64,000 nucleotides of DNA from Amoebophrya sp. A120 (Eukaryota > Protista > Dinoflagellata): the NCBI GenBank assembly GCA_905178155.1, contig CAJINV010000005.1, positions 439,319 to 503,318 on the forward strand, read 5' to 3'. Below, in pieces: positions 2,086 to 48,882 of this stretch. Under the pieces are notes generated by a model that saw only the letters and a list, made by a program, of their open reading frames with translations, searched no databases and was not told where the DNA came from. A program made the position numbers and the translations under genes. The stretch's first letter is position 1. Every line of letters begins with the position of its first letter.

Positions 2086-4846
2086 TCACAACCATCTCTC
2101 CAGCATTTTTTCACTGCTTTCCCACAAATAATCCATCATTTCCTCGTCCTGCGCCAGCCTGCTCTGCGTCGCCAACTTACTGTCTCCCACGTAGTGCTTA
2201 TCCAACGAAAAAAGTGCTACAGTTACACATTTGTTGGCAATTCAGCAACACAAATTTTATCTGCATGAGAGAGGAAATTTGCAATGCCGAGATCATAGGG
2301 GAAAACGAGTATGAAACGAGGATCACATGCCTTTCCGGCATGCGAAAGGTAATCACGCTTGCGCGTTCTGCAATACAAGATGTAACTGTAACACTTTTTT
2401 CTTTGCATAGTGCTCGCCGATGATCGGCCTGAGCTCGAACATCGCGTACAGGATCTGGTTCACTGCCGCTTCCTTCGCCGTGATCATCCCGATAAACCGC
2501 AGTGAATAGTGCTGGAAAACCCCAGCGGTGTTGTAGTAGCTCGCTTTGACGTTGTTTCTGCCCTTGTCGGAGAAGATCACGTCCATGAATAACCAGTTGG
2601 AAAGCGGTTGCACCACCTTCCCGAAGAAATTCCCGATCGCGTTCTCGGCAAGCGACCCGGTGTACACCATACCGGGGTGGACGGACACGCTGTGGACGTC
2701 GAGCTTGCGAACCAGGGAGTTGCTGAAGAGATTGTTCATCAACTTTGTGTTACTGTAGGTGTTCCAGTGGAAATCGAGACCAAGTTTGGTTATGTTCAGA
2801 GAAGTACTTGCGGTCTTGTTGGTTGGCTTCTTTTTCGCAAGAATTTGCTGTTCCTGCGTACTATCCGTGCTGTTCTTCTTGTTTTTCACCATTTTACCCG
2901 ACAGCCCGTCCTCCAGTGCTGTGGCGAGGGCGGATTTCTTTTTCGATTTGAAGCCGGGTAGCCTTTATCCAAGAAAAAAAGTGGCACCGTTACACATTTG
3001 TTGTCAATTCACCAACACAAATTTTCTCTGTCTGATAGAGAAATCATGTGCAGCGCTGAGATCATAAGGGAATAAAACACGTATGAAACGAGGCTGTCAT
3101 GCATATCCGGCATGACAGAGCTTGCTTGTATTGCTTGGCCTCCAGCAACACAATGTGTAACTGTAACACTTTCACCTTTCCATAGCTTTCCAAACGCGTG
3201 TAGCAAGGAGCTGACGTGGATAACGCGTCGGAGAACTTTCTTCTGGTTTTTCTTTTCATCCTCCTTCAAAAGCAGTCTCGTGAGCAGGAAAGGCGACAAG
3301 TGGTTGGTCTGAAACTGGAGCTCAAACCCGTCTTTTATCGTAAGGAAAAATCCGCCCTCCCCATATCGAAAAGAAAATTTGTGATGCTGATTTGTCACCA
3401 CAAATCAGCTTTGTCTTGCGCACAAGGCAAACGGCATCCATGTGGCGCATCGTATAGCGAGTCTGTCATGCGTCTTCGTCTATGTCAGACTTGTTTCTCA
3501 TGCTCAGCTGCTAGCCGGATGCGTACCCAAATGGGCTTAGAATATGCCGACAAGCTCTTGCTGCAATACAAAGTTCATTTGTGTACACAAATCCAGCAAC
3601 ACAAATTGTCTTTTGAGTATGGGGTGGGGGCTTTTTTCACCTTGATATCTTTCGTGATTTCCTTCTTCTCCATCCACCCGATGTATTGCAGTGAAAAATG
3701 CCCCCACCCCGGAGTTTGCAGAAGTTTGTCATGCAAAGTTTCCCAATGACAGCTTTTTGTCTTGCATAAAAGGATTGCGAGCGTTTCTGATGCAGAATCA
3801 GGGTGCGCAAGGTGCCTTGTGCATAATAGAGCCGCCTGCTGTTCGGCTATTTCGCAACACAAATTTGATCTATTCAGCATGGAAAATTTGTGATGCTGAG
3901 ATATGCAAGACGGGGAATGTTTCTGTTGGAAAGGTTTGCAATACTGCCAAGCTGGGGGTGGGGGCATTTTTCATTGTAATACGATGCCCGCGTTGTTCAC
4001 TAAAACAACGGCTTTTTTGGACTCCTTGGCCAGTTCCCGGATTTTTTCGTCCGCTTCCTTCACGTATCAAATGCAAAAATGTCTGGGTCTGGAAGGTTGG
4101 AACTTGTCATGCTAACTTCGGACTCTAAGAAACTCTGTATTGCATGACCAGCAAGAGGAGTCTAGTTTGTGCTACGCGGGGAGGGCGTTTGTCATGCGGA
4201 GTAGGCATCAGGAAGCCCTCTAAAAATCTGTGATGCTAGGGCGTGCATTATAGACGTCCTGGGTCATGCAAAACATGCATCACAAGTCTCAGAATCTTCC
4301 AGACCCAGACATTTTTGCATTTGATATCACGGCTTTCAGGGACGACAGGTCGAGGGGTAAGATGTGTGGCTTGGGAACACCAGCACGAGAAGTGGAAGTG
4401 CTTAGGTCGATAGTTGTACTTGTAGCGCTTTGATATTGATGTTCATCTGCATCAAGAGAAGAAGGAGCTTCTCTAGTTTTATTGTTGTACTGGTCGGCCA
4501 AAAGTTGTTCCATTTTCTTCGTGTTCCGCACGGCGAAAACTAGCTGCTTTTCCAACCCCAGGTCCAGCAATTCCACGGCCAGCGCGAACCCGATCCCGGA
4601 GGAGGCGCCGGTCACGACGAAGAGAACATCCTTGTCGATCATTTTTCGCGGGACTTTGTACAAATCTTCCCCCGACAGCAAACCGTAAAATCTGTTCTCG
4701 CCGTTCGTGGCCAGCGGGTGGGGGTGCGGGTAGGTGGTCAGGAAATAGTAAATGCCGTGGCGAAGCTCCTCCGGGACCGCTTTGTAGTACGCGAAGGCAA
4801 GAAACGCCATCGCCATCGGCAAAAGCTTCCACTGACGGTCCTTCAT
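2086..4846 (-). CDS. Short-chain dehydrogenase/reductase (retinol dehydrogenase-like), interrupted by 5 TIR introners
   Basis: After removing each element plus one DR: VVTGASSGIG, LDLSSLKAVKEAD, LVNNAGIG, ITKDGFELQFQTNHL, VIHVSS, YSNTK, VHPGMV and C-terminal AQDEEMMDYLWESSEK; TGA at 2086-2088. Confidence 0.93.
2199..2409. mobile_element. TIR introner, family C
   Basis: TATCCAACGAAAAAAGTGCTACAGTTACA...TGTAACTGTAACACTTTTTTCTTTGCATA; DR GTGCT/GTGCT; removal gives IIGEHYVGDSK. Confidence 0.92.
2966..3184. mobile_element. TIR introner, family C
   Basis: Same TIR and interior as 2199-2409; DR GCCTT/GCTTT (1 mismatch); removal gives AFG(K/R)LPGF. Confidence 0.88.
3336..3647. mobile_element. TIR introner, family B (AAAAATCCCCCCTCCCCATATC-type ends)
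   Basis: DR TCTTT/TCTTT; removal rebuilds ITKDGFELQF. Confidence 0.93.
3684..3981. mobile_element. TIR introner, family B' (TGAAAAATGCCCCCACCCC ends)
   Basis: About 27-bp TIR; DR CGATG/CGATG; removal gives NNAGIGWME; interior closely similar to 47507-47811. Confidence 0.93.
4065..4326. mobile_element. TIR introner, family A (TATCAAATGCAAAAATGTCTGGGTCTGGAAG)
   Basis: Perfect TIR of about 31 bp; DR TCACG/TCACG; removal gives SLKAVKEADEKI. Confidence 0.95.
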
Positions 4847-5370: not shown

Positions 5371-6072
5371 TCTTCATATCCATGCGGATGAAGTAGATTC
5401 AGATTTTGATTTTCAGCACTGAGTCTCGCCATCAAGGTGCTTGGTCGGGGTTTTCCAATGGCCGCGGCCCCTCTTCATATCCCGGCATACTAGGCACAAG
5501 CAGTCTTGCTCGCGTTTGCGCAGATTGCAATCCCTCCACAACCCTCCGCAACCCTCCGCAGCCCTCCGCAACCCACGGGCGCGCGAGCCTCTCCCCCCCC
5601 GCATCTCTACACCTATGTAGTGCCGTATCTACATACTCATATGCTATTTATGTATAGATACAAAATATCATACATACTAGATATTCGTAGACAAAAAAAG
5701 CCGCACCATATCCGCCACCGACCACAACCCTCCGCAACCCTCCGCAACCCACCGCAACCCTCCGCAACCCTCCGCAACCCACCGCAGCCCTCCTCCCCCC
5801 GCTCCTTTGGTGCTTTCTTTCTTCCGCCGCTTTTTATATATGGTCTGCAGTGTATCTAGTAGCTGCGCAGCTTCCTTCTTTTTTTGCAAGAATGAAAGTA
5901 GTACTAGTAGCATAGATAAACCATAGGGCCTGTAGCCATCTGGGTAGATCCAGAAACCAGCGCAACCGCCCACAACCCTCGGCAACGCCTCTCCCCCACT
6001 GGTATCTTCGTGCTTCCTTCCTCCCCCTCTTCATATCCATGCGGATGAAGTAGATTCAGATCTTGATTTTCA
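5371..6072. repeat. About 700-bp intergenic unit with 45-bp terminal direct repeats and internal (AACCCTCCGC)n arrays
   Basis: TCTTCATATCCATGCGGATGAAGTAGATTCAGAT(T/C)TTGATTTTCA at 5371-5415 and 6028-6072. 10-mer tandem arrays at about 5538-5576 and 5722-5793, with a degenerate copy at about 5961-5990. Confidence 0.8.
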
Positions 6073-6403: not shown

Positions 6404-8594
6404 TTACGACCCACCCGCGGCCAGGGTTGCGCGAAAGGGGAGCGGTGCCATGTATGCATTGCAAATATATCCTCTGGGTCTGTCATGCGAAATTTGAAGG
6501 ACAAGGACTTCTAGGAGAACAAGATCAGGAGTGATATGAATACTTACGTGTAGGAGCCAGGTTTGTTGTCGCGCTGAAAGCCAGTTTGTCATGTCCATGT
6601 GCATGACGGATGCATTATCTGCAACAAGCCTGGAAAATAAACAAAAAACTTCTGATGCTGTTATAAACGCCGGACAAGCACAAGCTGTGCTGGCTACATC
6701 AACTCGGCGAAGTAGATGCAAGTACCAGCAGCGAGCACAAGTTTATTCCTCGAGACCCAGATCGAAATTTGCAGTGCATACCATGTAGTCGTCGGCGATG
6801 GGGTCGAGTCCGTGTTGCTTCATGTGTTCCTCCCAGTTGTCGACTGGGACGACCACAGCACTGATCGTGCCACTTGGTCGTTCTTGGTCGCTCTTCTCGT
6901 TCTTGACCAGTGCATGGTTCACTTCCGTTTTCTTTTCTTGGTCCATGGCTTCTCCATCGATGCTGGCTGTATTACTGTTCTCGTTCTTAATAGCTTGATG
7001 AAGGTCATGTTGTCCCGCATTTGGTCGTCAGTATCACAAGAAAAAAGTGCTACAGTGACACATCTATTGCAACTTCAGCAACACAAATTTTCTCTGTGTT
7101 GCAGAGAAAACTTGCGATGCAGAGATCTTCCTAAGGGAAAACACATACGAAACGAAGTTCGGATGCATTTCTTGCATGACAAAGGTTGTCTGTCTTGCGG
7201 CTCCTGCAACACTATGTGTAACTGTAAGTGTAACACTTTTTTCTTGCGATAGTCGGGGTCGTTGGACTAGTACTGCAGTAGAACACAACACCGCCCTTCC
7301 AGTTTGAATTTGATCCTGATCTTCCTGCTTATAATAGGTCTCAAGAATCTGGGCTCCTGCAGATAGCGTGGGACAAAGAGTAGACGCTAGTGATGTCGTA
7401 CTAGGCAATGCACCGAGAACGGGAGATGAAAAAGTAGATGGCTGCTGCTGTTCATGTTCTCCTTGTCCTTCAACACACATCAAACTTGTAGTACCAGTAG
7501 AAGAGGCAACATTCGAGGTAGAAGTTGAAGTAGCGCTGTTGTTCTTTCCTGTACTTTTTTTCTTCTTTTCGGTTTGATGTCCTTTCTTTTCCGAGGTCGC
7601 GCTGCTGTTGCCGCTGTCCTTGCGTTTAATATTTTTCGGTGTAGTTGGGCCAGAACCAGTGTCTTTTTTGGTCGGCTTTTTCGGTTTTTTGTGCAGCTTC
7701 TTGTTCCCCGGTGAGTTGTTGCTTTGCTTCGATGAATTTTTTCGGCTTTTTTTGATGATCTTGCCCACGACCGGAAGAGTGGATGATGCTGATGCGCCGG
7801 CACTGTAAGTTGCTTTCACAGATGGAGATGTAGTTGAAGATGAGCCGTTCATGAGTAAAAAATCTTGTTCACCGTTTGTCGTTTTCAGCATTTTTTCATC
7901 ATCATTTTCCTCCTTCGCTTCCTCCAAGATCCGTCGTTCCGCGGTAGCTTCGGCCTGCAGCGCCGCCTCCCGCTTCCCGCGCGCCCACGAGTTATTGTGA
8001 GGAAAATCAAAAATCCCCCCTCCCCATATCAACTTGGAAATTTGTGATGCTGATTTGTGGCCACCGCCACAAATTATCGGCTTTGTCTTGCAGAAAGTGC
8101 TTGCCGGGTATGCAGAAGGCTAGCAATCAGGTATGGCAAACAGGTTGGCAGTAGTCGAAAGCGCACGACAGACTGGCTGTAGAATGCGCCACAAGGAGGC
8201 TCCCATTACCCCATGATGGGCAAGACAAAGAGGATTTGTGACCCCACATCAGCATCACAAATCTCCTTTTCGATATGCAGAGGAGGGATTTTTTCTTGCA
8301 ATAGGAGTGCGGGCGGAACCAGCTGCACATCGTGGACGGGGAAGCCGTGCTAGATGCGCCAAAAAGATGGCTGAATCGGTCCCGTTCGGGGACGAAAGAC
8401 AGGGTGACCCCCTCGGCGGAGGACTGGATGCAACTCAAGTAGTAGGTCCCGACTTTCAAGCCCCACTGGTCGCTCGGGAGCTTCTCAATGTCGAAAGTGT
8501 GTTTGTCATAGAAGACCTTGGTAAACTTGACGTGAACCACACCACCCATGGAGTGCTGCCACTCGCCTTGCAGGTCGGCGATCTGGGGGTCCAT
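6404..8594 (-). CDS. Hypothetical protein (K/S/T-rich low-complexity middle), 3 introners
   Basis: ORFs 8127..8594, 7064..8032, 6743..6946 and 6404..6721 join in frame after removing the elements (FRPHSWARG; QRPRRPNAG; DDYMAPLPF). The 3' end is uncertain. Confidence 0.7.
6453..6780. mobile_element. Diverged family-A-like TIR introner
   Basis: TATGCATTGCAAAT...TCTGGGTCT / AGACCCAGA...ATTTGCAGTGCATA; DR CCATG/CCATG. Confidence 0.85.
7032..7251. mobile_element. TIR introner, family C
   Basis: TATCACAAGAAAAAAGTG / CACTTTTTTCTTGCGATA; DR GTCAG/GTCGG. Confidence 0.88.
7993..8303. mobile_element. TIR introner, family B
   Basis: Family-B ends; DR CGAGT/GGAGT (synonymous mismatch). Confidence 0.87.
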
Positions 8595-10392: not shown

Positions 10393-13300
10393 TCAGCGCA
10401 AGTGCGCGGGTCCGGGCCCATCCCTTGTGATCATGCTGCCGTAGGAAGCCGCAGTGGTGGAGTAGCTGTTTTTCACCATCTGCGGCTGCTGGTTCGGCCC
10501 CGCCGCGGAACTGGTGTGGTTGAGCTTGTGAAATTGCACGAAGACCCCCGTAATGTCATCCGAGATCTCGTTGTCCGAGTCCGACTATGCATTGCAAAAT
10601 CAATAACAATATCGCAATCGCATTTTTCATACTGAATCTGATTGCAGTACTTATTGCATGACATTGACGGTTCTTGTGGTAGTGATTTCTTCATAGAATC
10701 AGCATTAGAAATTCCATTTACTTCTCGAAGTGAACAATAGTTCTATCAACCTAGACCTGGATTAGTATGTGCCGGATATTAAGAATTTTGCAATACATAC
10801 AGACATCCACTGGTGCCAAGACACCTTGGCCAAGTTCTCCATGCCGACCTGTGCGTCCTCATTCTGTGCGTTCATCGCATGCTGCGCGGCCTCCGGAGCC
10901 TCGAGGAATTCCCACACACCGTCACTGCAAACGAGAAGTCCGATGTCGTCCTGTTTTGTTCATTCGTTGTTTATTCCTCATACGTCGATCTACACAGTGA
11001 GCTGGTCTCGTGCATTTCACACAGAGACAGATCCACAGACTCTGCAGCATCAACACATATAATGCGGAAAACAATCTGAATCTTATCTTTATCATTCATG
11101 CGCATGCCGCTTCGTTTATAGTTTGTTTATTTCATCGTAAAAAATATTACGCTCTGTATCCGGAATTTGCTGACTTCTGCCTCCGCACACAAACCAGCTT
11201 CCCGGTGAGCTATCAAATGTAAAAATGTCTTGGTCTGGAAGGGTTGGAACTTGTGATGCAAACTCTGGAACACACAAAAATTTGTGTTGCATGAGCGCCA
11301 AAAGCTGTCCATTTCTTGGCACGCAAGTAGGAAGTTTCTCATGCGGGACAGGCATCATGAGGCGTGCTCAAAACCTGTGATGCTTTTGCCTGCATCAGAC
11401 GCCACTTGCGTGATCCGAAATATGCATGACAAATCTCAGAATCTTCCAGACCCAGACACTTTTACATTTGATATGAGCCACGCAGTCCCCAAATGCTCTG
11501 CTCATGTTCAAACCCGTATCAGAATGAAAAATCCCCCCTCCCCATATCGAAAACGGAAATTTCTGATGCTGATTTGTGGTCACAAATCATCTTTGTCTTG
11601 CATGCAGGGCCATAGGAGCCATTTGACGCATTCCAGAGCAAGTCTGTCATGCGCATTCGACTACGGCAAACCTGTTTGTGATGCGCAATTGCTAGCCTTC
11701 TACATACCCAAACAGGCTCAGAAAATGCCGCCAAGCACTTGCTGCAAGACAGATCTGATTTGTATACGCAGATCCAGCATCAGAAACTTCGTTTCGATAT
11801 GGGGAGGGGGGATTTTTCATTACGATAACCCGGGTACATTTGACCTTGGTTTTTTAGTTGCTTTTCGTGCGGCAGCGTGACCACGATGTCAAAAGCAAAC
11901 CAAAAATGCCGTGTCAAAAGCAACTGCGAAGCATAACTTCAATTTCATCTTCATCCACGAAAAGCGACACTCTCAAATAAACCAAAAGTCTCATCAGATA
12001 AGTACCTTTCGCGAACACCCTGTGGTTAAAGAAGCCGTCAAACAAAACTCGCCCGCCCCGCTCCTCAATGCGCTTCTTCTCTTCCGCCAAGCTTGGCTTG
12101 TGGTCCCTCGTCAAGTCCCGGCCCGTGTAGGCGCCCTTGCTGGTTCGGGAGACCATCACAGCGCGGCTGTCACCGACGTGGGCAACCTTTGTTTGATGAT
12201 AGTTTAATATGATGGTGGCATTCGCATTTGATGATGGTGTAGTTCTTCTTCCAGCTCCTGCTACACTAGGCCATGCATAAAAACTACAGTTCGATCTGTA
12301 CTACTATCTGTCATTGCATCAGAAGTTCTACTAGCATCGTTGCAAACAAGGCCATTTTCGTGTAGTACATAGATCATCCCTTTTTCTGGTCCCGCGAGGA
12401 TTTGGTAGACTAGGGTGCACGTGGAGCCGCTCATGCCAGCTTGGAGTGTTGCGTGCCGTTCCGCGTGCTCAATAAGTTTTTGGCATTTGGCAAAAGCTGT
12501 TTGGAGGGCCGCTGCCGGATCTGTGATTTGATACATGGGTTGTGTGGTCGGAATATTACTTGAATAAGAATTTCACCTGCTCAACATCAACATGATCCTC
12601 ATCGAATGAAATTTTTCATCATATAAAAAAAGCAAATTTTCATTCGCTGAAAAGAAGAACTAAAAACAGCACAAGCAAACACACAGATTCACCCTTCGCT
12701 CTGTTCGGTTCGTTCAAAAAGAGCTTCGGCAGGGCATCCTTAACGAATTGTGATATGTGGTGCCCTATCAAATGCAAAAATGTCTGGGTCTGGAAACTTG
12801 TGATGCAAGGAAGGCACTAGTGAACTCACTGTAATGCGCTGCCAGGCATGACAAGTTTTTTTCATGGTTCTGAGTTGCGTATTCCGCATGGCATGAGAAA
12901 CTGCATTGTTGCATGACAGGGAGAAGGAGCTCTTCGCGGCCATGCAATACAGAGTTCAGAGTCATGCCCGACTAGCATGACAAATTTCGGAATCTTCCAG
13001 ACCCAGACATTTTTGCATTTGATATGCCCGTGCTGCCCGTGCCCATCGTACACTCCGACAAGAAGAAACTCCTCTGCAACGTAGAGCTGAGAAAAGTTTC
13101 ATAGGAAAAGTGACGTAAGTATCAACAACATCGACGAGTAATTGCATTGCCTTTCGCGAGGAAAAGTAAAGCAGCTTATTATATTGGGTGGGTAGCAATA
13201 GAGTGGAGAAAGAATATGCGAAATAAATTTGTATACCACACTAAAGGCATCCTGATTTGGTGATTCTGGCTTCATGCCCTTTTTGCAGCTTATGCCGATT

Positions 13301-14342
13301 CCCAGCTTGTTCAGCTCTTCCCTGGTTTTCTCGTTCCCTGCCTTGTCTGCTGCGGAACGCTTGTCTGTTTTTATATTTTATTTCCAGTGTTTGTTTTTGA
13401 TATAGCTTTTGCTTATATTTATAGTCCTATGGATGTTGACGAGAAGATCATGGTGACAGCTGTGGTACTAGGTTGCACTTGCAGTTGCAGCCTGACAAAA
13501 ACGTCGATCAAATACTTGGTGACTAAGAGTCGTAAAAATCAAAATCGACTTCTTCTATACCAGAGGAGCTGCTAGCCGCTGGTCCTGCTTGTGTCAATTT
13601 CTCATCGAACGACTTTTGTCCCGTCTGATCCGAATGGAAACTTGACAAGTTCAGCTTTCTCCTGGCTTGCGTTGTTTTCACCAAGTCGCTGGCGTTTGTG
13701 GTTTTCAGAAACTGCATCAAGCCATGGTTTATGAATTGCAAAAATGTCTGGGTCTGGAAGGTTGAAGTTTGTGATGCTAGTTTATTTTGGATTCTAAAAA
13801 AATCTGTATTGCATGATCAGCAAGAGGAGTCTAGTTTGTGCTACGCGGGAAGGGCATTTGTCATGCGGAATAGGCATCAGGAAGCCCTCTAAAGATCTGT
13901 GACGCTAGGTCATGCATTACAGGCATTCTGGGTCATGCAAAACATGCATGACAAACCCGGCAACATTCCCGACTCAGACATTTTTGCATTTGATATGGTT
14001 GTCTGTCGGAGCTGCTGTTGTAGACCCTGTGGAGCTTCGCGCGGCACCGGATTGGCTCGGCCTGGATAATCGAGAATTTGAGGCCGGTTGGTTGTCATGA
14101 ACACAATCAACGAGTAGACAGCACAGGAGCGTCGATATCATCAAATAAAGCAACAGAAAGGAAAAACACATGAAAAATTCTTATTCTGCCAGGAGGTCCT
14201 CAAGAAGGCATTATATGTACTCTTTCTTATCCACCGTGCCCAAGGTTAGCCTCCTTCTTTCGCTGGCTACCCGACGGGTTTTCCTCGGATTTCTGGTCGC
14301 ATCGGACCGACCTCCCGAAGTTGCGAGATACTCCGTCGCCAT
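10393..14342 (-). CDS. Protein phosphatase 2C (PPM family); 5 introners plus several GT-AG introns
   Basis: Motifs SCKKGMKPESPNQD, GVYDGHG, SGSTCT, VAHVGDSRAV, TRDHKP, PGLNMSRAFGD, CSDGVWEF, SDDIT. The start (ATG 14342, MATEYL...RRRLTLG) is inferred; stop TGA at 10393-10395. Confidence 0.9.
10586..10799. mobile_element. Aged introner: only about 14-bp TIR retained
   Basis: TATGCATTGCAAAA / TTTTGCAATACATA; DR CCGAC/CAGAC; removal gives QWMSDSDNEISDDIT. Confidence 0.8.
11211..11473. mobile_element. TIR introner, family A
   Basis: DR TGAGC/TGAGC; removal gives GDCVAHREAGL. Confidence 0.93.
11517..11827. mobile_element. TIR introner, family B
   Basis: DR ACCCG/ACCCG; removal gives MYPGLNMSRAFGD. 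Confidence 0.93.
12766..13024. mobile_element. TIR introner, family A
   Basis: DR TGCCC/TGCCC; removal gives DGHGQHGHHISQFVK. Confidence 0.94.
13730..13995. mobile_element. TIR introner, family A
   Basis: DR TGGTT/TGGTT; interior closely similar to 4065-4326; removal gives PTDNHGLMQF. Confidence 0.93.
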
Positions 14343-15095: not shown

Positions 15096-17809
15096 TCAGG
15101 ATATGCAGCAAGAGCTTTGGTCTTCCACCGAGTACTCGAATTGCAGTGTGCCATTTACCCTCGCGGCAACACATTCCTGAATGTCGACCCAGTCACGCAG
15201 AGTAGCGTTACTCGTGCTCCCCGGCCGGTTCTGTGCGTTTTTCAAGTGTAGCTGCTTGATCTCGTCCTCGCAAAACTCCAAACAGCTCCGCTCGTTCTTG
15301 AACAACATCCCGACCACGGACAGAATCCGCGCCACATTTTCCATCGACCGATGGGCAAGCGAGTATTCCAGCGGACACCACAACACCTCGTGGTTCGCAC
15401 CGTTGTGCAGCAGCAACCGGACCAAATTCGGTTGGCGCCAGCAAACCGCGGCTTGCAAGGGTGTCGGCGCATCGGCCGTGGGAGCAACGGACCCCTCGAT
15501 GTTCGCGTTTAGTTCGAGCAACACTTTTGCCGTCTTTGCCCTCCCGTGGATCACCGCGTTGTGCAGTAGCGTGAAGTTTTTCCGATACCCGAACCGGTCT
15601 TCCGCCGGGTCGCCCCAGGAGCACAGCTGGCCATAGTAGTTGATGTCGGCGCCCTCTCGGAGCCGCGCGACGATCTCTATCAAATGGAAATATGTCGGGG
15701 TCTGGAAGATTCCTACATTTGTCGATGCGTGTCTGGCATGCCTTAAGAATCTGTGATGCAGGAGCACGAAGCGGTCCTCTTTTCTGTCATGCAAAAACGC
15801 AGTTTGCCATGCAGAACACGCAACACATAGGAGCCCAAAAAATTTGTTATGCGTGGTTCCGTATTTTTGCAGTGGAACAAACTCTCATTCACTTTTAGCA
15901 TTACAAGTTTCCAGACCCAGACATATTTGCATTCCATAATCTCCTCGCGACTTCCGTACCAGGTGCCGACGCACTTCCACAGCTTGGCTTGCGGGTGCCC
16001 GTCCTGGCGTATGACAGTGCACAACTCCCCCTTCCCCTCATTTGCATAGCATGAACGGCAATACAAGCATCAATTCAACAAGAGTGCCGGCTTTGCATGA
16101 CAAATTTGCACTGGAGTATAGTGCCACTTGGGCTACCAGAATTTGTCATGCAAACAGTGCCAAGAAGCGAAGGGTGGAATGGGTATTTTGCATGACAAAT
16201 GAGGGGGAGGGGGAGTTGTGCACTTTCATATGGCGCCCGGCTTGCCACTGCCGGACGAGAATCCGCTGCGGGTTTCATCACGAGGAAACATCCCCCCTCC
16301 CCATATCAAAAGTAGGAGGCTTCTGATGCTGGGTTTGCGTATACAGATCGGGTTTGTCTTGCAGTAGAGGGCAGCAGGCTCCTGCCAAGCCTGAGTAGAG
16401 AGCTTTTGGCCTAGGGGCTTAGCATGAAGAACGTCTATGCTGTAGGCCCAGCAGTATCACAAACCGCCCGCATAATGCGGCAGAGCCTGTGGAGTTGTCT
16501 TCTTGCAAGACAGACGTGATTTGTGGTCTCAAATCAGCAAGACAAATTTTCGGAAACACACCTTTTCGATATGGGGAGGGGGGATTTTTCCTCGCAATAG
16601 GTTTCTCGGATCCGCGGTAAGCCCGACCGGGACTAAGGGACCGGTGTACAGGTGCTGCGAATTATTGGTCGCATTGCGATTTGCAGTTCCCCAGGTCGTT
16701 GTAGTACTGGCTCCTCCCGCTCCAGAGCTTGTGGTTACAGAAATCGTTGCGCCAACAGCACCTCCTTGTGTCGCCGGAAGTAAGCTCACCTGCGTTGGAC
16801 TCGCCGCAATTGATGGCCCGGGACCCCCGCTGTGAAGAATGGTTACCTGTGACGCCGGGATCGTTTGCTGAATGGTCATTCCCCCGCCATGATGATGTCC
16901 TAGCAAGTGCGATGGCTGCGGCGGCGGGCTCGGTACTGGCGGCCCGTAGGATGACGGGTAGGCGAAGCTGGGCATCGGATGAGGAGGCCGCCCTGGTACA
17001 CCCGAGCTGGAGCTACTCGATGTTGCCGCCGTCGTGGTCTGGCCGTTTGTCGGCAGATACCGCTGCTGAACTGGCGCTGGAGGCGGTGGCTGTTGTTGAC
17101 CCTGACCCGCTCCCCCCGTGTTGAACAAGTGTTGCGCTAGAGTTTGCAGAAACCCCGGACTTCGCGTCGTCGCCGGTCTGTTCGGCGCAGGGGGAATCGG
17201 TTTCGCGATCCCCTTCTTTTCGCAATAGTCCTCGATGAGGGATCGGACCGCGCGATTGGGTATCAGATTGTTGGGAGAAATCTCTTCTCGCGTGACAGGA
17301 CTACTGGAATGCCCAAGGGAAAACCAGTCTTGGATACTCTGGCGGTCGTACGTCTGCCCGTCCTCCGCCACCACCGGGTCCGCCATCAGTTCGCGGGAAA
17401 TGGGGCACAGAAACTCCGACGGGTGGTCCTCCTCTTCTACTTCATCCGTGGCTTGACGCTCGTCTGAGGCAGCAACCTGCGGTGTAGTTCTACTTGCGGG
17501 CCCCGCGGCGCCCGCGTGTTCTGCCGGAGGCGGCGGAGGAGGTTGTGCCGAGGAGGAGCTAGTTGACGTGGTGGACGCAGGAGGAAACAAGCTAGTACTG
17601 GCAGCACGACCATCATCATGCTGTTGTACTAGTTGTTCGTCTGGTACTAGCAACGGCGGCGCCGACGCGTTTGCGTAGGGGTTGGTCGCGGGGGGACGCT
17701 CGTCAAGATCATCGCAAGTTGTTGACCAGGGGAGCAAAGTCGTTTCCGGAGGAGCTGCGTCGGCCCGGCTGCTCGAACCACTGCTCGACGTTGCTTTGTC
17801 AGGATTCAT
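15096..17809 (-). CDS. U-box and ankyrin-repeat protein (putative E3 ubiquitin ligase), 3 introners
   Basis: U-box PSEFLCPISRELMADPVVAEDGQTYDRQSIQDW...SPVTRE...LIPNRAVRSLI; ankyrin repeats TLLHNAVIHGRAKTAKVLLELNANIE and TPLQAAV...LVRLLLHNGANHE. These join in frame through two micro-exons. Confidence 0.88.
15678..15938. mobile_element. TIR introner, family A
   Basis: DR ATCTC/ATCTC; removal gives SREEIVARLREGAD. Confidence 0.92.
16010..16230. mobile_element. TIR introner, family D
   Basis: TATGACAGTGCACAACTCCCCCTTCCCCTCATTTG / CAAATGAGGGGGAGGGGGAGTTGTGCACTTTCATA; DR TGGCG/TGGCG. Confidence 0.92.
16276..16599. mobile_element. TIR introner, family B (left end CA instead of TA)
   Basis: DR GGTTT/GGTTT; removal gives DPRNPQRILV. 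Confidence 0.9.
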
Positions 17810-18477: not shown

Positions 18478-21400
18478 TCATCCGTAGTTCAGCTGCGGGG
18501 TCCCCTCAATTTCCACGGGCGTGCGGTCCGTTGGCAAGACGCATCGGAACGCGAAGAACTATCCAGGAGAAAACACCCATGCCATCCTGATCCATTTCTT
18601 GCATGACAAACGAGTGCAACTTGTTATGCATGTTTGCATGACAAATTGGATGGGGATGGGTGTTTTTTATTTCCTGGATAAGAACGCTGCTGTGTACATC
18701 CCGAAAATCGCCAGATACGCCAAGGCTGCCCAGTTGCTCCTTGGGTTTAGGATCATGTACAAGTGAATCCCCCGGTTGTCCAAGGCCCACAGGTAGAAAG
18801 CCAAGTACAGGATCCCGAACAGCAGCCCAAACCAGAGGTCTAAAAACAGCAGCGGTCGCGGATTGAGCCAAATTTGGTCGGCCCAAGCGAGGAGGACGTT
18901 GAAGCCGTGCACGTTTATCTGGAAAAACCCGAAATTCCACTGCATAAAGTCCCGCACCGACCCCCTTTCCTTCTTCTTCGCGAGCAAAAAGCAGACGATC
19001 ACGGGGACCAAAACCCCCCACCAGACGACGAAAGTGATGGTCGCTTGCACCAGGGCCGGAAACCTGAAAACTTCGTAAATTCCGACGAAAATGGGTCCGA
19101 GGCAGGTGCCGCACATACCCTGTTAGTTGATATTTATTGGACGACGTCGGGATCATGTTGGCACAGTCAGGATTTCTTCTGGCGATACAATAGATTCGTT
19201 GTCAACCCTGCAGGGACAGAATTTAGGATTTACTTCGAAGGAGATGTACCTCCCTAACAAGTTGAAGTTCTCGTAGCACGAAGAGCGAGCTGAAATTCGA
19301 TGCTTTCGAAAGCAACCGTCTATCAAATCAAAATCTCAAAAATCAACAAATACCCCGCATCGGGCGAACAGTAGGACAAATGTCGCCATCAAGTGCCTGA
19401 CGGTGAATAGGTTCCAGCTGGTCATGGTATAGCTGACACAGGGCCACCAGCTTATCCGCATCACCATAATGCCCACGTTCAGCGCCCCCCAAAACGCGAT
19501 ACCGCTGTGCACGGACAAAAGTGTTGCGTCACTGGTCGCTCTCGTCGCCGGGCCGCCATTGTAGTTCGGAAACATTTGGTTTTCAATGGCGTACTTCTCC
19601 CAATTTTCCGTCTCCCAGATCGCAAAGGACGGCAGTCGGTTGAGCGCCTGCTCCGGGTGTAAGGCTCCGGCGGGCCTTGGTTGGTTCATGAAGCCTTCCG
19701 GGTCGCGCAGGAAGGCCATTTGCGGCACCAGGGGGCACCAGACAATGTTCGCCGGAGTTGCGTAGGCCCCGAAAGGGGTCCGGCCTCCGTCTATCGAAAG
19801 GAAAGATCCCCCCTCCCCATATCAAAACGGAGCTTCAATTTCTGATGCTGGATTTGTGTACACAAATCAGGTTTGTATTGCAGAGAGGCACTGCGGCCAG
19901 ATCCCCAGGCTAGGTAGGGGCGTATGGGTCTAGTTGTTCAGCATGGCAAACGGGTCTCTTTTAGGGCCAACAGCATGACAAATCGCTTCCATAGTGGGGC
20001 AGAAGCTTCTGCCCTTGTCTTCTTGCAAGACAAAATGTGATTTGTGACCTCAAATCAGCAACACAAATTTTCGGAAACATACCTTTTCGATATGGGGAGG
20101 GGGGATTTTTACTTTTGATACCGTCGAGGGAGTCTGCCAAGTCGGGCCCGGGTTTTCGGAAGTACATCACGGGTATGGCGACGGTGATGAAGATATCAAA
20201 AGTGAAAATGTCTGGGTCTGGAAGAATGCAAGATTGTCATGCTATTTTTGGATTCTAGAAAAATCTGTATTGCATGACCAGCAAAAGGAGCCCAGTTTCT
20301 GCTACGCGGGGAGGCCATTTGTCATGCGGAATAGGCATCAAGAAGCACTCAGAAAATCTGTGATGCCAGGAAATACATCACAGACGTCACGGGCCATGTA
20401 AAATCTGCATGACAAGTTCGCATTCTTCCAGACGCAGACACTTTTACATTTGATAGAAGAGAAAGGCAGCCCAGAAAACGATCCGCGGCAAGGCTTTCGG
20501 GCGATCGGTCCACAGCCACTCGTTGTCCTCGGTGATTTATGCATTGCAAATATGTCTGGGTCTGGATGGATGCGATTGCGAACTTGTGATGCGCATTTCA
20601 CAACACAAAAAAATCTCTCATGCAGAGGCAGCAAAAGATGCCCACTTCCTGTCACCAAAAGGTGGAATTTGTCATGCGGCTTAGGCAATGCGAAAGATAA
20701 TTATAATTTTCGAAATCTGTGATGCTAGTAGGGCTTCCATGACAGACCGTCTGTGTCATGCAAAAACAGCATGACAACCTCACCTCTTCCAGACCCAGAC
20801 ATATTTGCAATGCATATGATTTGGGTTCGAAAAAACTCGGCCGCCTCCTCGAAGTTGCGCAAGGGCGGGACCGTCGACCACTTGTCCTCCTTCCTCTTCT
20901 TGTTTTTTGCCGCCCAGCTTCCCATTCCATCGTCAAACGAGCCCATGGAGAGCTCGGAGGTTATCGTATTTAAAAACGTCCCCGCCCCATAGTTGTGATG
21001 CAGATCTGCATGCTGAAAATGTTTCTCATGCGGAGCCCCATGAAAAGCATTTTCTAGTCGCGTTTTGGAATTTTTCATGCTCCAATCAGCTTAGTTGGCT
21101 AGATTTGTGATGCTGCTGAACAAGCTCCACAGGACTACACTACGAGGACAGCCTTGTCATGCTAAACAACAAAAGCTGGTTGATTTGTCTAGCAGATTCC
21201 CCATCTTGACTCTGGTGTGGGGACGCTTTTAATCAGGATAGAGGTGCCCCCGAAATCATCTTCTTGGGAGGAGTATCAAATGTAAAAATGTCTGGGTCTG
21301 GAAACTTGTGATGCTGTGTGGCGTATCATGAGGAGGCGACAATTGCTGGCTCAGCATGATAAGTTTCTGAGCTTCTAGGTGTTGCCTATTCTGCATGACA

Positions 21401-22206
21401 AACTACGTTTCTGCATGACAGAAAAGTGGGGCTCTTTGGTAATGTGCATGACAGATTTAAGAGTCATGCCAGACAAGCATGACAAACTTACATTCTTCCA
21501 GACCCAGACATTTTTTTACACTTGATAAGGAGGCTGAAAAGATGGAAACCAACGGGACATCGAGGAAAAGCGCGGTCGCTTTTTCCGTCTGCTCTTCGGC
21601 AAAGGTAGTGGGAAAAGCCCTAGTACCTTCTATGTCGCTTTCCGTCGACGCCCGTCGTTTCCGCAGTAATTGAACACTGGTGTAGTTGTTCTGCTGTGGT
21701 CCGCGTGTCTGCTGGCTGTGGTTTTCCTTATTGCTATTGTTCACATTTTGATTATTTTCATCAACATCGCCTTTAGTTGTTCTTTTCGCATTCCTGCTGT
21801 TGCTCTTTCGGGACATCGTATTTTTGCCTCCGTAGAGGTACTGATTTGCTTGGCCATACGACTGCAGGTCTTCGGATGCTGGGACCATGCCGAGGAAGTC
21901 ATCCGGCGGCTCAGTTGGATCTGAGTTTATCGAGCGGGAAGTAGATGTTGTTCTTGCACCAGGAGCCGGTCTTGTCGACTTGATGCTTGGCATCTTCGTC
22001 GTTTCTCCTTTGGTAGACTGTGCGGAAGTAGATGCGGTTCTTGCCGGCGAGAAGAAAGAAGTGGTCTCGGTTGCTGTATCCTCTTCGTCGTCGTACTCGG
22101 CATCGCGGTAATTTGAACGTGGAGGACTCGTCGCTTCTTCATCGGGAGACGCGCTAAGACGGCGCGGTGCTGCGGTGTCTTCGTGAGAGGAGAACTCGCC
22201 AAACAT
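18478..22206 (-). CDS. Multi-pass membrane protein, possibly FAR-17a/AIG1/rolling-stone-like; 6 introners plus a GT-AG intron
   Basis: In-frame join of all segments from ATG 22206 to TGA 18478-18480. Hydrophobic helices with YTMTSW, NVHGFN and LYMILN motifs. The family call is by motif resemblance only. Confidence 0.72.
18560..18680. mobile_element. Minimal 121-bp TIR introner, family F
   Basis: TATCCAGGAGAAAACACCCAT / ATGGGTGTTTTTTATTTCCTGGATA; DR AGAAC/AGAAC. Confidence 0.9.
19792..20120. mobile_element. TIR introner, family B
   Basis: DR CCGTC/CCGTC; removal gives SLDGGRTPF. Confidence 0.92.
20194..20455. mobile_element. TIR introner, family A
   Basis: DR GAAGA/GAAGA; removal gives AAFLFITVAIP. 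Confidence 0.92.
20538..20816. mobile_element. TIR introner, family A
   Basis: DR TGATT/TGATT; removal gives RTQITEDNEW. Confidence 0.92.
20962..21240. mobile_element. TIR introner, family E (AAAAACGTCCCCRCMCCA ends)
   Basis: DR GAGGT/GAGGT; related to 33076-33354. Confidence 0.9.
21274..21527. mobile_element. TIR introner, family A
   Basis: DR AGGAG/AGGAG; removal gives FSASSQEDDF. Confidence 0.92.
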
Positions 22207-26000: not shown

Positions 26001-29000
26001 TATTTCTGCCGCGGTTGTTCAACACAGAGCCCCGTCTGACCCGGTTGTAGTTCCTGCTGCTGTAATGGTACCACCGGCCGAAGTGGTGGCGTCGGGCGTT
26101 TCTACCCCTGTGGAAGGCTCGATGGATGTTGGGTGGACCAGAACTACCTCTTCCCCCGCTCGGGCTGTTGCTATTCATCTCCAGCGCGTTGCGGGAACTT
26201 CCGCCGGGCCCGTGCGAACCAGCGGCGCCCGGCGGGGCGTGGTTCTCGTCGGTGACTAAATCCTTCTCGAATAAGTCGCGGAAGCCTTGCTGCGGTTTTA
26301 TGCCCTTTCTCTTCCGCCCGCCAACGCGGCGGGTTGTCAGGGGGTTCGGGTTACTGATAATCGCAGTGTTTAGTCCGTTGCTTGTTGAAGCTGCACCGCT
26401 GGAATTATTTTTCCCACGACCCTTGTTCCCATTATGTCTGTTACTGTTCGGATTTCTTCGCACGGAACCAACCGTCAACCGATTGCCTAGAAGTCCTTGC
26501 TGCTGGTTAAATGAACCAGGCCTGTTCGTCGCAGCATTTATTGCTGGGTTTAAGTTAGAGGTGCTAGACGAAGAAGATGCTCCCTGTTTATTTCTCGCCG
26601 TCAGAACGACAGTCCCATCGCCCGGTTTATTTCTCTTATCATTCGACTTGATCACGACCACAGCTTTATTTCCCTTCGCGTTTTCGTCACCGGCATTTCC
26701 ACCATTTTTCGCAGCCGCCGCCCTCGCCGCCAACTGCGCTTTCCTTGCCTTCAAATTCTTCAAGAGTAATCTTCTCTTCCGTCCTTTGAACGGCAGTTTC
26801 TGCTTCACCATCCGGGCGGTGAACCTTCGCTGCTGCTCCGCCCGGATCCGTTTCGCGACGCGAGCTTCGATCAGACTGAACGGGAACTGCCGCTCGATTT
26901 CCGCCTCGTTCTGCTTCAAAATGTTCATCTGTTCCTGTTTCAGATTCTCCCTCAGTTTCTGCTTCTGCAGCGCGATGAAGCACTTCAACTCATCCACGAT
27001 CGAGTCCTGGTCCGCTTTCATGGAACTTCCGCAGGCTTCGAACAAGGCTACCCGTGGGTTCCGGGAAGAGAGAAGCGTCAGGTCGGTTGAAAATTCATCT
27101 CTTGGCTTCAAAGATATCTCGTGTACGGGCTCCTTGCCGTCGTTCAAGTTGGTTTCGCGGAGGAGGGTTTGAAGGAAGGATTTCACATTCAAATCACTCT
27201 TCTCGTTCGGGAGATTCTCGAAGGTCAGAGAATTGTCCTTACTGGTCGTCTGGTCATTTGTTCCATTCACTGTTGCACCTAGTTCGCCCCCCGCAGGAAC
27301 CACAAGTCCCCCATTCGCGGCGATTATAGACATCCCTGGATCACTGGCTTCCCAGTCGACCTCCATACTCGCTGGCACTAACACATTGAAAGGGTTCTTG
27401 TCGTCCTTTTCTTGCATCTTGTTCAAATCCTTCAACGGCGGCGACTTGCTGTTTGATTTTGGTTTTGAATCGGCAAGAACGTAGACCCCCGCATTCATCT
27501 CCACTGCTTCAACCAGACAAGCCACTCGCAAATAGCACTTGAACAGTTTGTACGTGTCCGCCACTTGGCGGAATAACTGTGCCATCCGGTGCCGTGCCAC
27601 GTTTCGCAGCATCAAAGGTCGGTTAAAAATGATGGCGTCGGTGTTGGCTTTGAATTGCGTGCTGAGACCACCTGCTGTGGAGTTCAGCTGCTGCGTTTTT
27701 TGCAATTCCTCTCGTTCCTGCTTCAACGTCATTGTGTGCTTCGGCAGAAAATATTGCTGCAGCAACACCTTTTTCTCCGGAAAGAAGGACGCCAAGTGAA
27801 TCTGCTCCAGTTTCACTCGCTGCTGTTGTTCCGCTTCTGGATCAAGGATTTTCGTAGTGCTGCACTGCGGTGTAGTGCTGCACTGCGGTTGTATTGGTAC
27901 TATGACAGCGCTTCTTCCCACCTCCGTCAGAAACATCAGCTCTCCCTGTGACCCGGGGTTCAAAGGCACGACGATTTGCTTTGTTTGGCTTGTTGGTCCT
28001 CTGGAGGCTGATGATGAAAGCACTGGCACGAGTAGATCACCAGGAGCGGTGGCCCTGCTATGAACAACTTCTATATTAGTAGAGTGTTGCTGGACCACAA
28101 CATCACCAAGGGTAAAAATGTCGTGGTCCTTCGTGTTCGCGTAAACGTACTTCGCTACGAAGCGGTGTAAGTTTTCCATAATCTTCCTCCTCGCGACGTG
28201 AAGATTTTGATTCGCACCGCCGCTTGTGCACTTGCCGGTGTCGTGATGCAATTCCACCGTCTCAAGAACATTCTCGAGGTCCAGCTCGTTCTGAAATCCC
28301 CAAAACGGACCGAGCAGATCGATACCAAATAACAACGCTAGGCGTGCCATTATGGCGTTCTCAACTGTTACATTCTCAACTGTTACATGAGTTTGTGATG
28401 CAAGCATGGGAAAACTAAAAGGGGAAAGATTGCGCCTTTTGCATGACAGATTTGGCACAGATTCTTAGCCTATTTGGCACTTCGAGAATTTGCCATGCGA
28501 AGCAGCTTGATCGCGTCGATTCTGGTTCGAACTTTGCATGCCAAATCATGTAACAGTTGAGAATGTAACATTTGAGAACGCCATAGCCATCCGCTGCAGC
28601 TGCTTCTGCTCAGAAGTCGTAGTAGAGCAGGGGTGAGGTGGACGAGGATAAGCGCAAGTAGACGCGCCTCCACTATGTGTACTAGTACAAGAACTTTGAA
28701 GCTGCGCCACCCGGATCCACTTACCGAACTCCACACTGGAAATGTTGCTGCATCAAATGCAAAAGTGTCTGGGTCTGGAAGATTTCTAGATTTGTCACGC
28801 ATATTTTGCATGAGCCATGATGTCTGTGATGCATGCCGTAGCATCACAGATTTTTAGGTGGCTTTGTGATACGATACATCTACGACCGCATGAGAAATGC
28901 CGTCTCCACGTAGGACAAATCCGACCCCTCTTGCTGGTCATGCAATGCAAATTTTTTTATTTTTACTATCCACAGACAGCATCACAAGCTGTGACCTTCC

Positions 29001-31265
29001 AGACCCAGACATACTTGCATTTGATACGCTCACGCCCTCATCGATTTGCAACTGCAGAGCCGCGTCGTTCCCGCACTGCTTCCTGACCTTATCCCAAGTG
29101 GTCTTCATCTCAGTTTTCTTTTTCGTTTGCGACAACGAGGTACAACTAGACTCCTTTCGCAAAAGACTTTGCAGTTGCGCCCCAGCAGGAGCTGCTGCTG
29201 GTCCTTTGTGTTGCGCCGGCGGCTTAGAATTACTGTGATGTTGCTGGTGTCCTTCCTGCTTCTGGTAGTTTATCTGGTGGTCTACTCCACCATGATGTAC
29301 ATCTGCACTGTGGCGTGGACGATCCTCAGTGTTGTAGATCATCCGCAGCGTTTTCTCTTCGACTTTGTCGTCCTGACTAGACGCCGTCGTTCGGTCGTAA
29401 AGGACGGAAAACCAGTTGTGCGCGTGCAACACCGATCAAATGCAAATACGTCTGGGTCTGGAAATTTGTGATGCTAAAACGAGCATGATGGAAACGTTAC
29501 GTTTTCTTATCCGGGAAAGCATGACAAGTTTGCGACACGCTTTCTCATACGACCTCCGCGTGAGAAACTGCGTTCGTCTTGTATGACAAGAGAGGCTGCC
29601 ACTTTTGTTGGTCATGCAATACAGATTTCACAGGAATGCACGACCAGCATTACAAGTTCCAACTTCCCAGACCCGGACATATTTGCAATGCATAACACCT
29701 TGCAGTCGAGGTACAGCTCGGAGCCAAAGCAACAGTCGTTCACCAGGACGACGTTATGGAACTGTCAGGATTGAAATCGTCAAAGTTGAAATAGTTTGTC
29801 ATGCATAAAATGCAACGCAGAAAATGCCTGTCTTGCAGAGTAGGCAAGGGAGGCAGATTGTAAGCCTGCCGCGGGGTAGGAATAGAGCTGCTAAACTAGC
29901 ATGACAAAAGCCGTCTTCGTTACCCAAACCGCATTACAAACTGGATTCCGGCTCTACTCGAAGTTGTCATGCGCTGCTTAGAAATTGGGCTTGCAACTGG
30001 TATCGATTTTATGCATTACAAGTTATTTCAACTTTGTCGATTTCAACTCTGACACATCCATAGACGTCCGCGTTGCTGTAGTCGATTCGCAAGTCCCGGG
30101 CCTTGTAGACCTGCCTGATCCGCGTGAAGCAATTCGCCGCGCGCAACGCGTCCCGCCACGTTGAGAAGGACTGGGCGCTGCAGATGATGAGGGTGGGGAG
30201 GATTTGCAGGTCGATATTAACATTCGTGGTCTTCGGTGGATATAACGTATTTCCTGTCTGCAACGTCGCGTGGAAGTCCACTGCGGAGCTGGATTTTTTA
30301 CTCGCGGAACAAGACGACGAGGACGACGCTGAGCAAGATGTGATGCCTCCTGTTGTAGAAATGATCTTCGACCCGGTCGGCTTATCATTGTCCACACTGA
30401 CACTAGTTGCAGTTCCTGCAAGGCCGGTATTAATACTGTTAGATGAACTGCCTTTCGTTTTCGCCAACCACGCCTCTCTTTGCTTTTTGATACACGAGAC
30501 CAAGGTCGGTATGCTAGTCAGCTCCGCCGCAAGAACGCCTCCGGTGCTGCAATCTGAGAATTTCACCGCACAGGAGACTCTTTCTGGCGGTCGCTGCGGT
30601 TGCACGACAGGGGGCTGGAGTTGTTGTTCCTTTTTGCTCGAATCTTGAAAATTGGAAAACGGTTTCAGCTTCGTCCTCATCCTCCACAGCGGCATATCAG
30701 CCACGAAATTGCACTCAAAAACGCCGGTGCCCGGGCCGTGATCCGCAAGCCTATCGCCCATTACAGAATCGAGCTCCTTTACCGTGCGGCTGTGATGTTT
30801 CAGAGCTGCTCCGATCTTTACGAACGGGGTGGGACGAGGTCCTTCTTGCCCTTGGTTGCTGCAATCATTATTGGAAGATAGTAGTTGTAGAGATGAAACA
30901 TGGCTCTGCACATTCGTGTCCTGCTGCAGCAGAGCCGTGTCAACAGCACCGTTCCCGGATGATACCTGAAATTCCGCGTGGCACCGCCACCTTCTCGCGT
31001 AGACACAACTGGTCCAGAACTCGTCTACCAGATTTGACCGGTTCCCTTTTGGCGCATTAAAGTTATTCACCGGGACCGGATGCCACTGCGCACTGAAAGT
31101 TGTGGTTGGCGGTGTATTATTTGATGTGTCTTGAGAACAACAACCGGACGTCGCGGAAGTCGTCTTCAGCCGCTTCAAAGGTGGGGGCTTCGCGTGGTCC
31201 ATCTCGTTCCTTATTGGCGGGGATTTTGATCGCAACATCGTTTGCTCCTTCGAGGGTAGCAACAT
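23092..31265 (-). CDS. Large RING-finger protein with degenerate SNF2 (Rad5/Rad16/SHPRH-like) motifs; 4 introners
   Basis: RING CPVC...CGHAYCRECM...CPTCR. SNF2-like remnants PTLIICSAQSFSTW, ADVVLVN, LHAHNWFSVLYD, VFVVCFENWEQIQAIAPVL and WRFCLADSVEEEV. The start position is uncertain. Confidence 0.75.
28351..28585. mobile_element. TIR introner, family H (TIR with internal TTCTCAACTGTTACA repeat)
   Basis: About 40-bp near-perfect TIR TATGGCGTTCTCAACTGTTACATTCTCAACTGTTACATGA; DR GCCAT/GCCAT. Confidence 0.93.
28751..29026. mobile_element. TIR introner, family A (left end CA)
   Basis: DR TGCTG/CGCTC (2 mismatches); frame restored as EGVS(D/N)ISSVEF. Confidence 0.85.
29434..29694. mobile_element. 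TIR introner, family A (left end GA)
   Basis: DR ACACC/ACACC; removal gives DCKVLHAHNW. Confidence 0.9.
29755..30062. mobile_element. TIR introner, family G (about 55-bp TIR)
   Basis: TATGGAACTGTCAGGATTGAAATCGTCAAAGTTGAAATA / TATTTCAACTTTGTCGATTTCAACTCTGACACATCCATA; DR GACGT/GACGT. Confidence 0.92.
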
Positions 31266-48100: not shown

Positions 48101-48882
48101 AGGTTGTCGTTGACCAAGCGCGTGCAGTCGCCCTTGATATTCACCCCAACTTTCAGAATGTTGTCGTCCTCGAGAATCCGCTTCAGCGACGGCGGAAACT
48201 TCAAAAAGTGCTTCAGGTGGAAAAGCTTCACCTGAAAATGTTGTTAACAAGTTGCAGTTTCATAAGATTTTTGAGAACAAATAAAATCCAACAGCTGGTT
48301 TGCAACAAATAAGGACGAGAGCATCTTCGCGAGTCTTATCCTGGTGCACAACAAGATGGATCCAATGACTCGTCCTCCAGACTAGTGATGTTGTACTCGC
48401 AGTCGTATAGTAAGTACTTGCATTTTCCGCTGTAACGAGGCGTGTGAGGGTATCAGTTGTAGTGGCCAGCTATCCCTTGCGAGCGGGCTCTTATCTTCGT
48501 AGGCCAATTGGAGCAACGCGACTTTTGATCGGTGGTTTTTCCTGTACGACATATTCCACTCCGCGTCTACGCCCACGAGGGAAACCTTTTCTCGTAAAAT
48601 CTTCTTGCAAATCTCCTCTGCGTCGAGCGCGCAAGTCACGTACTGGCACCGCCCGGAAAACCTGAACGTATTTTGCATTCGGGAAGGTTGTGGCCGTGGG
48701 GGGCTTGTGCTTGTGGAGGAGGAAGTAGAACTACTCGATGAAGACGAAGTCGATCTCGAGCTGCGCGTCGTCGTGCTTGCTGCACCACTGGCAGCAAGCT
48801 TTGCGGCTGCCCGGGTGCTGGAAGAGGTGAGGCGGGAGGTCGTCACCTGGAGTACCGGGAAAGACCGGTGAAACCGAACCAT
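45143..48882 (-). CDS. WRN/EXD2-like DEDDy 3'-5' exonuclease with C-terminal helix-turn-helix; 2 introners plus GT-AG introns
   Basis: VGVDAEW, KVALLQLA, LKRILEDDNILKVGVNIKGD and SDWENLPLTNVQQVYAATDA motifs; HTH-like TLEEVGSELNLKPQTVQSYV. Both ends are inferred. Confidence 0.85.
47507..47811. mobile_element. TIR introner, family B'
   Basis: DR CTCAA/CCCAA; homologous to 3684-3981. Confidence 0.9.
47850..48101. mobile_element. TIR introner, family I
   Basis: TATAACCTGCTCAGGTGTTACAGTGTCAAACGTTACAATAG / CTATTGCAACGTTTGAGATTGTAACGTTTGAGCAAGCCATA; DR GGTTG/GGTTG. Confidence 0.92.

Follow-up and report, generated by a model that had tools for sequence, protein, structure and literature searches.

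About 30,000 introners have been reported from the dinoflagellate Amoebophrya sp. A120: elements of about 240 nt with direct repeats of 3–5 nt, removed other than by GT-AG splicing and ending in inverted repeats (IRs) that open with TAT, followed by seven variable positions and three or more As (Farhat et al., 2021; PMC7789003). The text of that paper reports no family-specific IR code and no detection of U1 in A120, and leaves two questions: what mobilises these introners, and how they are spliced without U1. The A120 families of Gozashti et al. (2025; PMC12130899) are described as DNA elements with terminal inverted repeats (TIRs). Here we consider a window of A120 DNA, the whole 64,000-nt stretch that was analysed (contig CAJINV010000005.1, positions 439,319 to 503,318; coordinates below are window positions), and in particular a 262-bp introner at 4065..4326, a non-canonical intron of a minus-strand gene. 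The original prediction, made from the letters of the window alone, took an internal motif of this element, TGTNWTGC, for the recognition code of a trans-acting protein common to all families.

Subterminal repeats are a feature of hAT and CACTA elements as well as of some MITEs (miniature inverted-repeat transposable elements). In Emigrant MITEs such repeats are bound cooperatively by Lemi1 proteins, according to the published text (PMC1636448), and the A120 elements resemble them in being non-autonomous TIR elements whose repeated internal motifs face inward at both ends. They differ from subterminal-repeat MITEs in that a single motif, common to 13 or more families whose inner TIRs differ, is spread through the entire element in helical phase, and in that the elements are precisely removed introns. 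Phased short motifs are also described for the left end of IS1535 (IS607 family), where TnpA binds four helically phased motifs which nucleate cooperative transposase binding and end pairing (PMC6188088); IS1535 belongs to a serine recombinase system without TIRs or a target-site duplication (TSD), and the likeness is one of mechanism only. The TA..TA termini recall IS3EU/GingerRoot elements, and an integrase-related transposase is a plausible mobiliser; the usual TSD given for that group is 6 bp, as against 5 bp in the A120 elements, which we therefore do not class as members (PMC10045372, PMC6839031). Introners, and subterminal binding repeats as a type of feature, were thus known; new are the shared motif, its 10.4–10.5-bp phase and its strand neutrality. 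The text of Farhat et al., figures aside, treats the ends and hairpins and has no internal motif, column conservation or phase, and searches of the literature turned up no text on TGTNWTGC or its phase, which figures, some supplements, theses and Roy et al. (2023) might nevertheless hold. A paper on tunicate splicing (PMC13326754) yielded nothing of relevance.

A motif common to the introner families

The window elements, including the focal one at 4065..4326, are published non-autonomous TIR introners of A120: organism, IR pattern, direct repeats, size and non-GT-AG removal agree with the text of Farhat et al., and their lengths match families of about 149, 208, 252, 260, 278, 305 and 320 bp in that of Gozashti et al. 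Like MITEs they are short, non-coding and present in many copies with TIRs and TSDs. Inverted ends and direct repeats were searched without preset end letters, and TAT…ATA ends and 5-bp TSDs emerged; a refined search with TAT in the filter gave 32 elements, and a local search three more, for a total of 35 in the window. Each element is defined by this search and its family number by a clustering of interiors; of the 44 clusters, 13 have four or more members. TAT starts 65 of the 70 window ends, and TAT-N7-AAA fits 51 of them exactly. The focal element lies between two 5-bp TSD copies (4060..4064 and 4327..4331); its left TIR (4065..4095, plus strand) is 31 bp, perfect, and begins with TAT followed by an A-tract, its right TIR (4296..4326) is on the minus strand, and both ends fit TAT, seven nucleotides and at least three As. 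The families had been said to have unrelated TIRs. This is true of the inner TIR part, which is family-specific, and not of the TAT and A-tract, which are common to all ends.

A second set of elements came from at least 153 loci (531 kb) of one other assembly (contigs JACKZZ01). They were found by the family-0 end pattern, which inflates the share of family 0 (189 of 413 elements), and no locus among those listed matches the unique sequence of the window. These listed loci hold 378 elements, with an exact TSD in 318 and one mismatch in 60, the most that the filter allowed. A collection of viral sequences gave no match to the family-0 end.

In the focal element the motif lies on the plus strand at 4105..4112, 4136..4143 (31 bp past the first copy), 4190..4197 and 4229..4236, and on the minus strand at 4245..4252 (one mismatch, 16 bp past the fourth copy), 4268..4275 (an additional match, not a family-consensus site) and 4277..4284, the outermost inverted copy, which mirrors the first. 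The starts first given for this element were correct; they included the leading pyrimidine, so that TGTNWTGC begins one base later on the plus strand. Over the whole window there are 161 matches against 21.8 expected. Inside the 35 elements (9,165 bp) we counted 143, compared with a shuffle mean of 5.8 and maximum of 12, whereas the 18 matches in the remaining 54,835 bp are at background (16.4 expected). Every window element has at least one copy and 34 of 35 have at least two; for the second assembly the figures are 374 and 351 of 378. The enrichment that the original prediction had proposed is therefore clear, as is its extension to a 121-bp element (18560..18680) and a 145-bp one (55004..55148), with three copies each. 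The motif faces inward, with 19 plus and no minus copies in the first fifth of the elements and one plus and 23 minus copies in the last, and in its extended form it is approximately AAAYY-TGTNWTGC, preceded by an A-tract. That the TIR itself is the first motif copy was found true of families 0, 1 and 8 only, and this idea was rejected; likenesses to RBFOX, PUF and CRP sites were considered and dropped.

The letters of the motif are conserved where its surroundings are not. Pairwise identity is 0.90 in the fixed motif columns, 0.70 in the spacers, 0.62 in the N column and 0.83 in the outer 25 TIR bases; the fixed columns exceed the spacers in all 11 families with five or more members (Wilcoxon p = 0.001) and the N column does not, an outcome that passes the conservation test set in the original prediction. 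CpG decay as the source of this conservation was rejected, both by substitution mapping and by a TG/CA control in which that dinucleotide is 0.90 identical in motifs (n = 106) and 0.71 in spacers (n = 208). When substitutions were mapped by parsimony on trees of ten families, motifs changed at 0.22 of the spacer rate on internal branches (confidence interval, CI, 0.17–0.28) and at 0.42 of it on terminal ones (CI 0.38–0.47). TIR ratios run in the same direction (0.47 and 0.76), and TSD mismatches imply a divergence of 0.040, near the terminal motif rate (0.032). This suggests that the motif is constrained mainly during propagation; there is room for selection after insertion, because part of the history on terminal branches is unsampled and one of the two TSD copies lies in an exon. 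Positions 4–7 of the outer TIR, left against right, do not covary in families 0 and 1, so perfect outer-TIR pairing is not required everywhere; several positions covary in family 2.

Helical phase, strand neutrality and the reader of the motif

Same-strand spacings of 31–33 bp, as noted in the original prediction, number 18 and are found in 11 of the 13 family consensuses, where the null has a mean of 1.8 (0 of 20,000); together with spacings of 15–17 bp they dominate. The phase coherence of the family consensuses peaks at 10.4–10.5 bp; at 10.5 bp it is 0.56, where 300 null runs reached 0.29 at most, and periods of 10.0 and 11.0 give 0.00 and 0.02. Collapsing the 31–33-bp pairs leaves 0.52 (null maximum 0.41, 0 of 300), and taking them out altogether leaves the phase in place (n = 22, cos 0.42, p = 0.0017). 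On individual copies coherence is 0.39 for the window alone and 0.41 when each related group is represented by one family, none of 400 null runs reached the observed value in a test on seven groups, and 11 of 13 families have at least 0.39, among which the sites of family 11 are too few to weigh much. Among elements preselected for coherence, one-mismatch copies keep to the phase in 10 of 11 families. Distances from the end to the first motif cluster at about 33, 43, 53 and 62, from which periods of 10, 10.5 and 11 are not separable.

The dominance of these spacings could also come from history: all families might descend from an ancestral palindromic tandem repeat of about 32 bp, the array being a relic with no present reader. 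Families 5, 7 and 8 do have one motif skeleton, with sites at offsets of about 0/15/47/96/142, so that common descent explains part of the motif sharing. A relic would not account for letter-specific conservation around a free N that holds after the TG/CA control, a substitution pattern which largely refutes it, nor for a phase that outlasts the removal of the 31–33-bp pairs. The interiors, moreover, cannot be aligned from end to end, as the original prediction had supposed; the longest local matches between families are 77 nt or less, except for families 4 and 12 (109) and 5 and 8 (108). We consider the relic explanation quite improbable.

Another explanation would relate the phase to intrinsic bending and the positioning of nucleosomes or DVNP, and not to sequence-specific binding. 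The A-tract before the motif would suit it, as would a residual AA/TT phase in step with that of the motif in families 0, 1, 2, 4, 10 and 12; the AA/TT amplitudes are low, however (0.07–0.41), and opposite in families 5–8, and histone-type positioning needs no fixed 8-mer. Of all the explanations weighed here we give this one the least credence.

The strand of the host transcript was called as minus for all 26 called window elements, and the nine uncalled ones were set to minus. Copies on the mRNA strand of 316 elements number 616 in forward and 577 in reverse orientation (p = 0.27), hence no strand bias, and 516 of 847 and 508 of 843 consensus sites are intact in the two readings (p = 0.80). 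Family 0 has inserted both ways (76 against 67); we discount the bias of orientation seen in one of 13 families (family 2, 6 against 18, uncorrected p = 0.023). Strand neutrality together with the 10.5-bp phase favours a binder of double-stranded DNA over an RNA splicing factor.

Our preferred reading, which we hold to be probable, is that the phased sites are double-stranded DNA binding sites for one common protein, and that this protein helps to pair the element ends for transposition. Several copies of one DNA-binding domain would sit on one helical face of the array, and the bound proteins would wrap the 110–320-bp element so that its ends can pair. Candidate binders are the transposase, which might be an integrase-like DDE enzyme cutting at the TAT ends and leaving 5-bp TSDs, and a host architectural cofactor. 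Many families with different inner TIRs could in this manner use one mobiliser, which the common motif would explain; removal from mRNA would be a separate step, in which the deciding features are likely the terminal hairpin and TAT terminus and not the motif. The phased motif could be used as bait in affinity purification and as a signature by which to recognise an autonomous partner. The earlier idea of a code for a common trans-acting protein is thus upheld as regards a conserved, family-wide motif and narrowed, by strand neutrality and phase, to a binder of double-stranded DNA, while the binder itself was not found.

Several observations weigh against this reading. A phase of 10.5 bp points to a reader at the level of DNA and is no proof that the reader serves transposition, and the motif sites run through the whole element, not near the ends alone. 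Families 3 and 9 lack the phase (−0.05 and −0.02), as do 19 small or singleton clusters (0.01), several of which look composite or deleted. The families are not independent, given the common skeleton of 5, 7 and 8 and the overlap of 4 and 12. Even the shortest terminal branches are constrained (0.54, CI 0.26–0.92), which could reflect selection after insertion. No transposase or integrase match was found in 80 of the 117 longest open reading frames (ORFs) of the second-assembly loci (Pfam; 531 kb), nor is any transposase of A120 reported in the text of Farhat et al. (2021). Finally, the interiors are predicted to fold as RNA, with a median z of −2.7 and 66 of 143 motif copies paired with an inverted copy.

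This folding speaks for a motif that works in RNA, as single-stranded sites bound by a splicing factor or through stems closing the element into a hairpin. The prediction is strong for the focal element (z −10.1; interior alone −4.3), 25 of 35 element interiors have z < −2, and the insertion of elements both ways means that an RNA signal would need to be present on both strands. There is, however, no retention of the sense strand, the phase peaks at 10.4–10.5 and is near zero at 11, and stems would not require identical letters across families; nor did the N letters of 49 inverted pairs, on inspection and with no formal test, show consistent complementarity above expectation. An RNA-level role for the motif seems to us improbable.

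Removal from RNA and the element terminus

The gene that holds the focal element has a first exon 100% identical to P0001, a 477-amino-acid protein of Amoebophrya sp. A120, the N-terminus of which gives a weak Pfam match, under the curated cut-off, to the short-chain dehydrogenases (SDR). The gene is mapped on the minus strand at 2199..4846, from the start codon to the last mapped element, and holds five elements; besides the focal one there are 2199..2409 (family 2, two motifs), 2966..3184 (family 2, four motifs, with a TSD mismatch), 3336..3647 (family 4, five motifs) and 3684..3981 (family 9, four motifs). Evidence on removal comes from RNA-type contigs of one sample, for which the label RNA is only a guess; the same contigs skip six GT-AG introns on the minus strand. 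In one of them 257 nt join 4327 to 2958, which equals the genomic distance once four elements and their TSDs, the focal element among them, are taken out, and the element at 2966..3184 is missing from it. Removal of 267 nt at the focal element fits this arithmetic as well as P0001, in which LKAV|KEAD is the junction that reads across the element. Five further joints skip exactly the element length plus 5: 33076..33354 (family 3, five motifs; 284 = 279 + 5), 33400..33667 (family 0, five motifs; 273 = 268 + 5), 40400..40653 (family 0, three motifs; 259 = 254 + 5), 47507..47811 (family 9, five motifs, TSD mismatch; 310 = 305 + 5) and 47850..48101 (family 8, five motifs; 257 = 252 + 5). Raw RNA runs gave 14 and 2 reads on the window, all partial.

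Elements with mismatched TSDs limit the register of the cut on the mRNA: −2 to +2 for 2966–3184, −5 to −1 for 7993–8303 (unclustered, family-4-like ends, four motifs; RNA-type skip 316 = 311 + 5), −1 to 0 for 10586–10799 (unclustered, two motifs) and −1 to +1 for 47507–47811. The sole register common to the four places the 5' cut one base ahead of the terminal TAT and the 3' cut four bases past ATA; each case has one contig, and a single case sets the upper bound. IR offsets of 1–5 nt in the legend of Fig. S23 of Farhat et al. (PMC7789003) fit this register. Under it an intron starts N-TAT, like the GTAY of all six canonical introns, and this resemblance of the terminus to the GTAY donors is a lead. 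We found no G bias at the proposed donor (84 of 258 elements, against a background of 0.31) and no AG bias at the proposed acceptor (22 of 258, against 0.078); GT-AG can be read in just 15 of 258, and the TSD letters look random. In another Amoebophrya strain introns are described as mostly GT-AG (PMC12005148).

The cut appears to be set by the element terminus, which weakens the claim that the motif, and not the TIR, is the code. That claim was not supported in any case, since the terminal TAT and A-tract are also common and conserved and belong to the published A120 consensus.

The lack of signal in the junction letters, the few readable GT-AG pairs and the non-detection of U1 speak for a further explanation, in which a host DNA-binding or chromatin protein reads the array and marks elements for co-transcriptional removal by a U1-less spliceosome, with unspliceable copies purged. 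It explains the 10.5-bp phase and the strand neutrality equally well, five of six canonical introns are without the motif, and motif constraint persists on terminal branches (0.42–0.56). That constraint is, however, weaker there than on internal branches, with a terminal motif rate near the TSD divergence, and the element at 10586, which has two strict copies, one of them in the TIR, was apparently removed, judging from the end of an RNA-type contig piece. Host marking is the main rival reading, though in our judgement an unlikely one. Slightly less credible still is a combination of the two roles, in which one host DNA-binding protein would read the array both to mobilise introners and to flag them for U1-less splicing with the −1 TAT/+4 ATA cut; if true, this would amount to intron definition by a DNA code.

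Candidate mobilisers and other features of the window

If the phased motif serves transposition, as we favour, the best lead to the mobiliser may be A120 family 38 of Gozashti et al. (PMC12130899), since it is described as Ginger-like, with a 5-bp TSD and TA/TA termini; it is about 810 bp long and has integrase-like homology. No autonomous partner was found among three long TIR pairs examined in the window and second-assembly loci. Two of them were chance pairings of separate elements, and the third (L062:4996-5967) was rejected as a 972-bp family-0 element with a non-coding unique insert of about 690 bp. This last element has perfect TIRs and a TSD, and lies just past an ORF with RNA polymerase Rpb1 domains.

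Family 0, the family of the focal element, recurs through the window. Those at 12766..13024 and 13730..13995 have six motifs; those at 15678..15938, 20194..20455, 20538..20816, 21274..21527 and 40035..40298 have five; that at 11211..11473 has four; and those at 28751..29026, where the TSD is degraded, and 59546..59807 have three. A further family-0 element is at 29434..29694. Family 4 is found at 11517..11827 and 19792..20120 (four motifs each) and at 16276..16599 (three), and family 2 at 7032..7251 (four). The remaining families are represented at 20962..21240 (family 3, three motifs), 16010..16230 (family 5, four), 29755..30062 (family 6, six), 28351..28585 (family 7, two) and 57494..57745 (family 8, five), and an unclustered element at 6453..6780 has just one strict motif. 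The 145-bp element at 55004..55148 belongs to family 1 and lies in frame within a long ORF of 1,891 amino acids; with its TSD it makes 150 nt without a stop in that frame, so the frame would be kept even if the element were retained.

The window is gene-dense, and its long ORFs and all six canonical introns with RNA-type support are on the minus strand, which fits the published blocks of co-oriented genes. A canonical GT-AG intron of 119 nt at 34767..34885 contains two motif copies and no detectable TIRs, and may have been an introner that decayed into a canonical intron. Clusters of a C-rich 10-bp tandem repeat lie at 5512..6000, upstream of the SDR gene.

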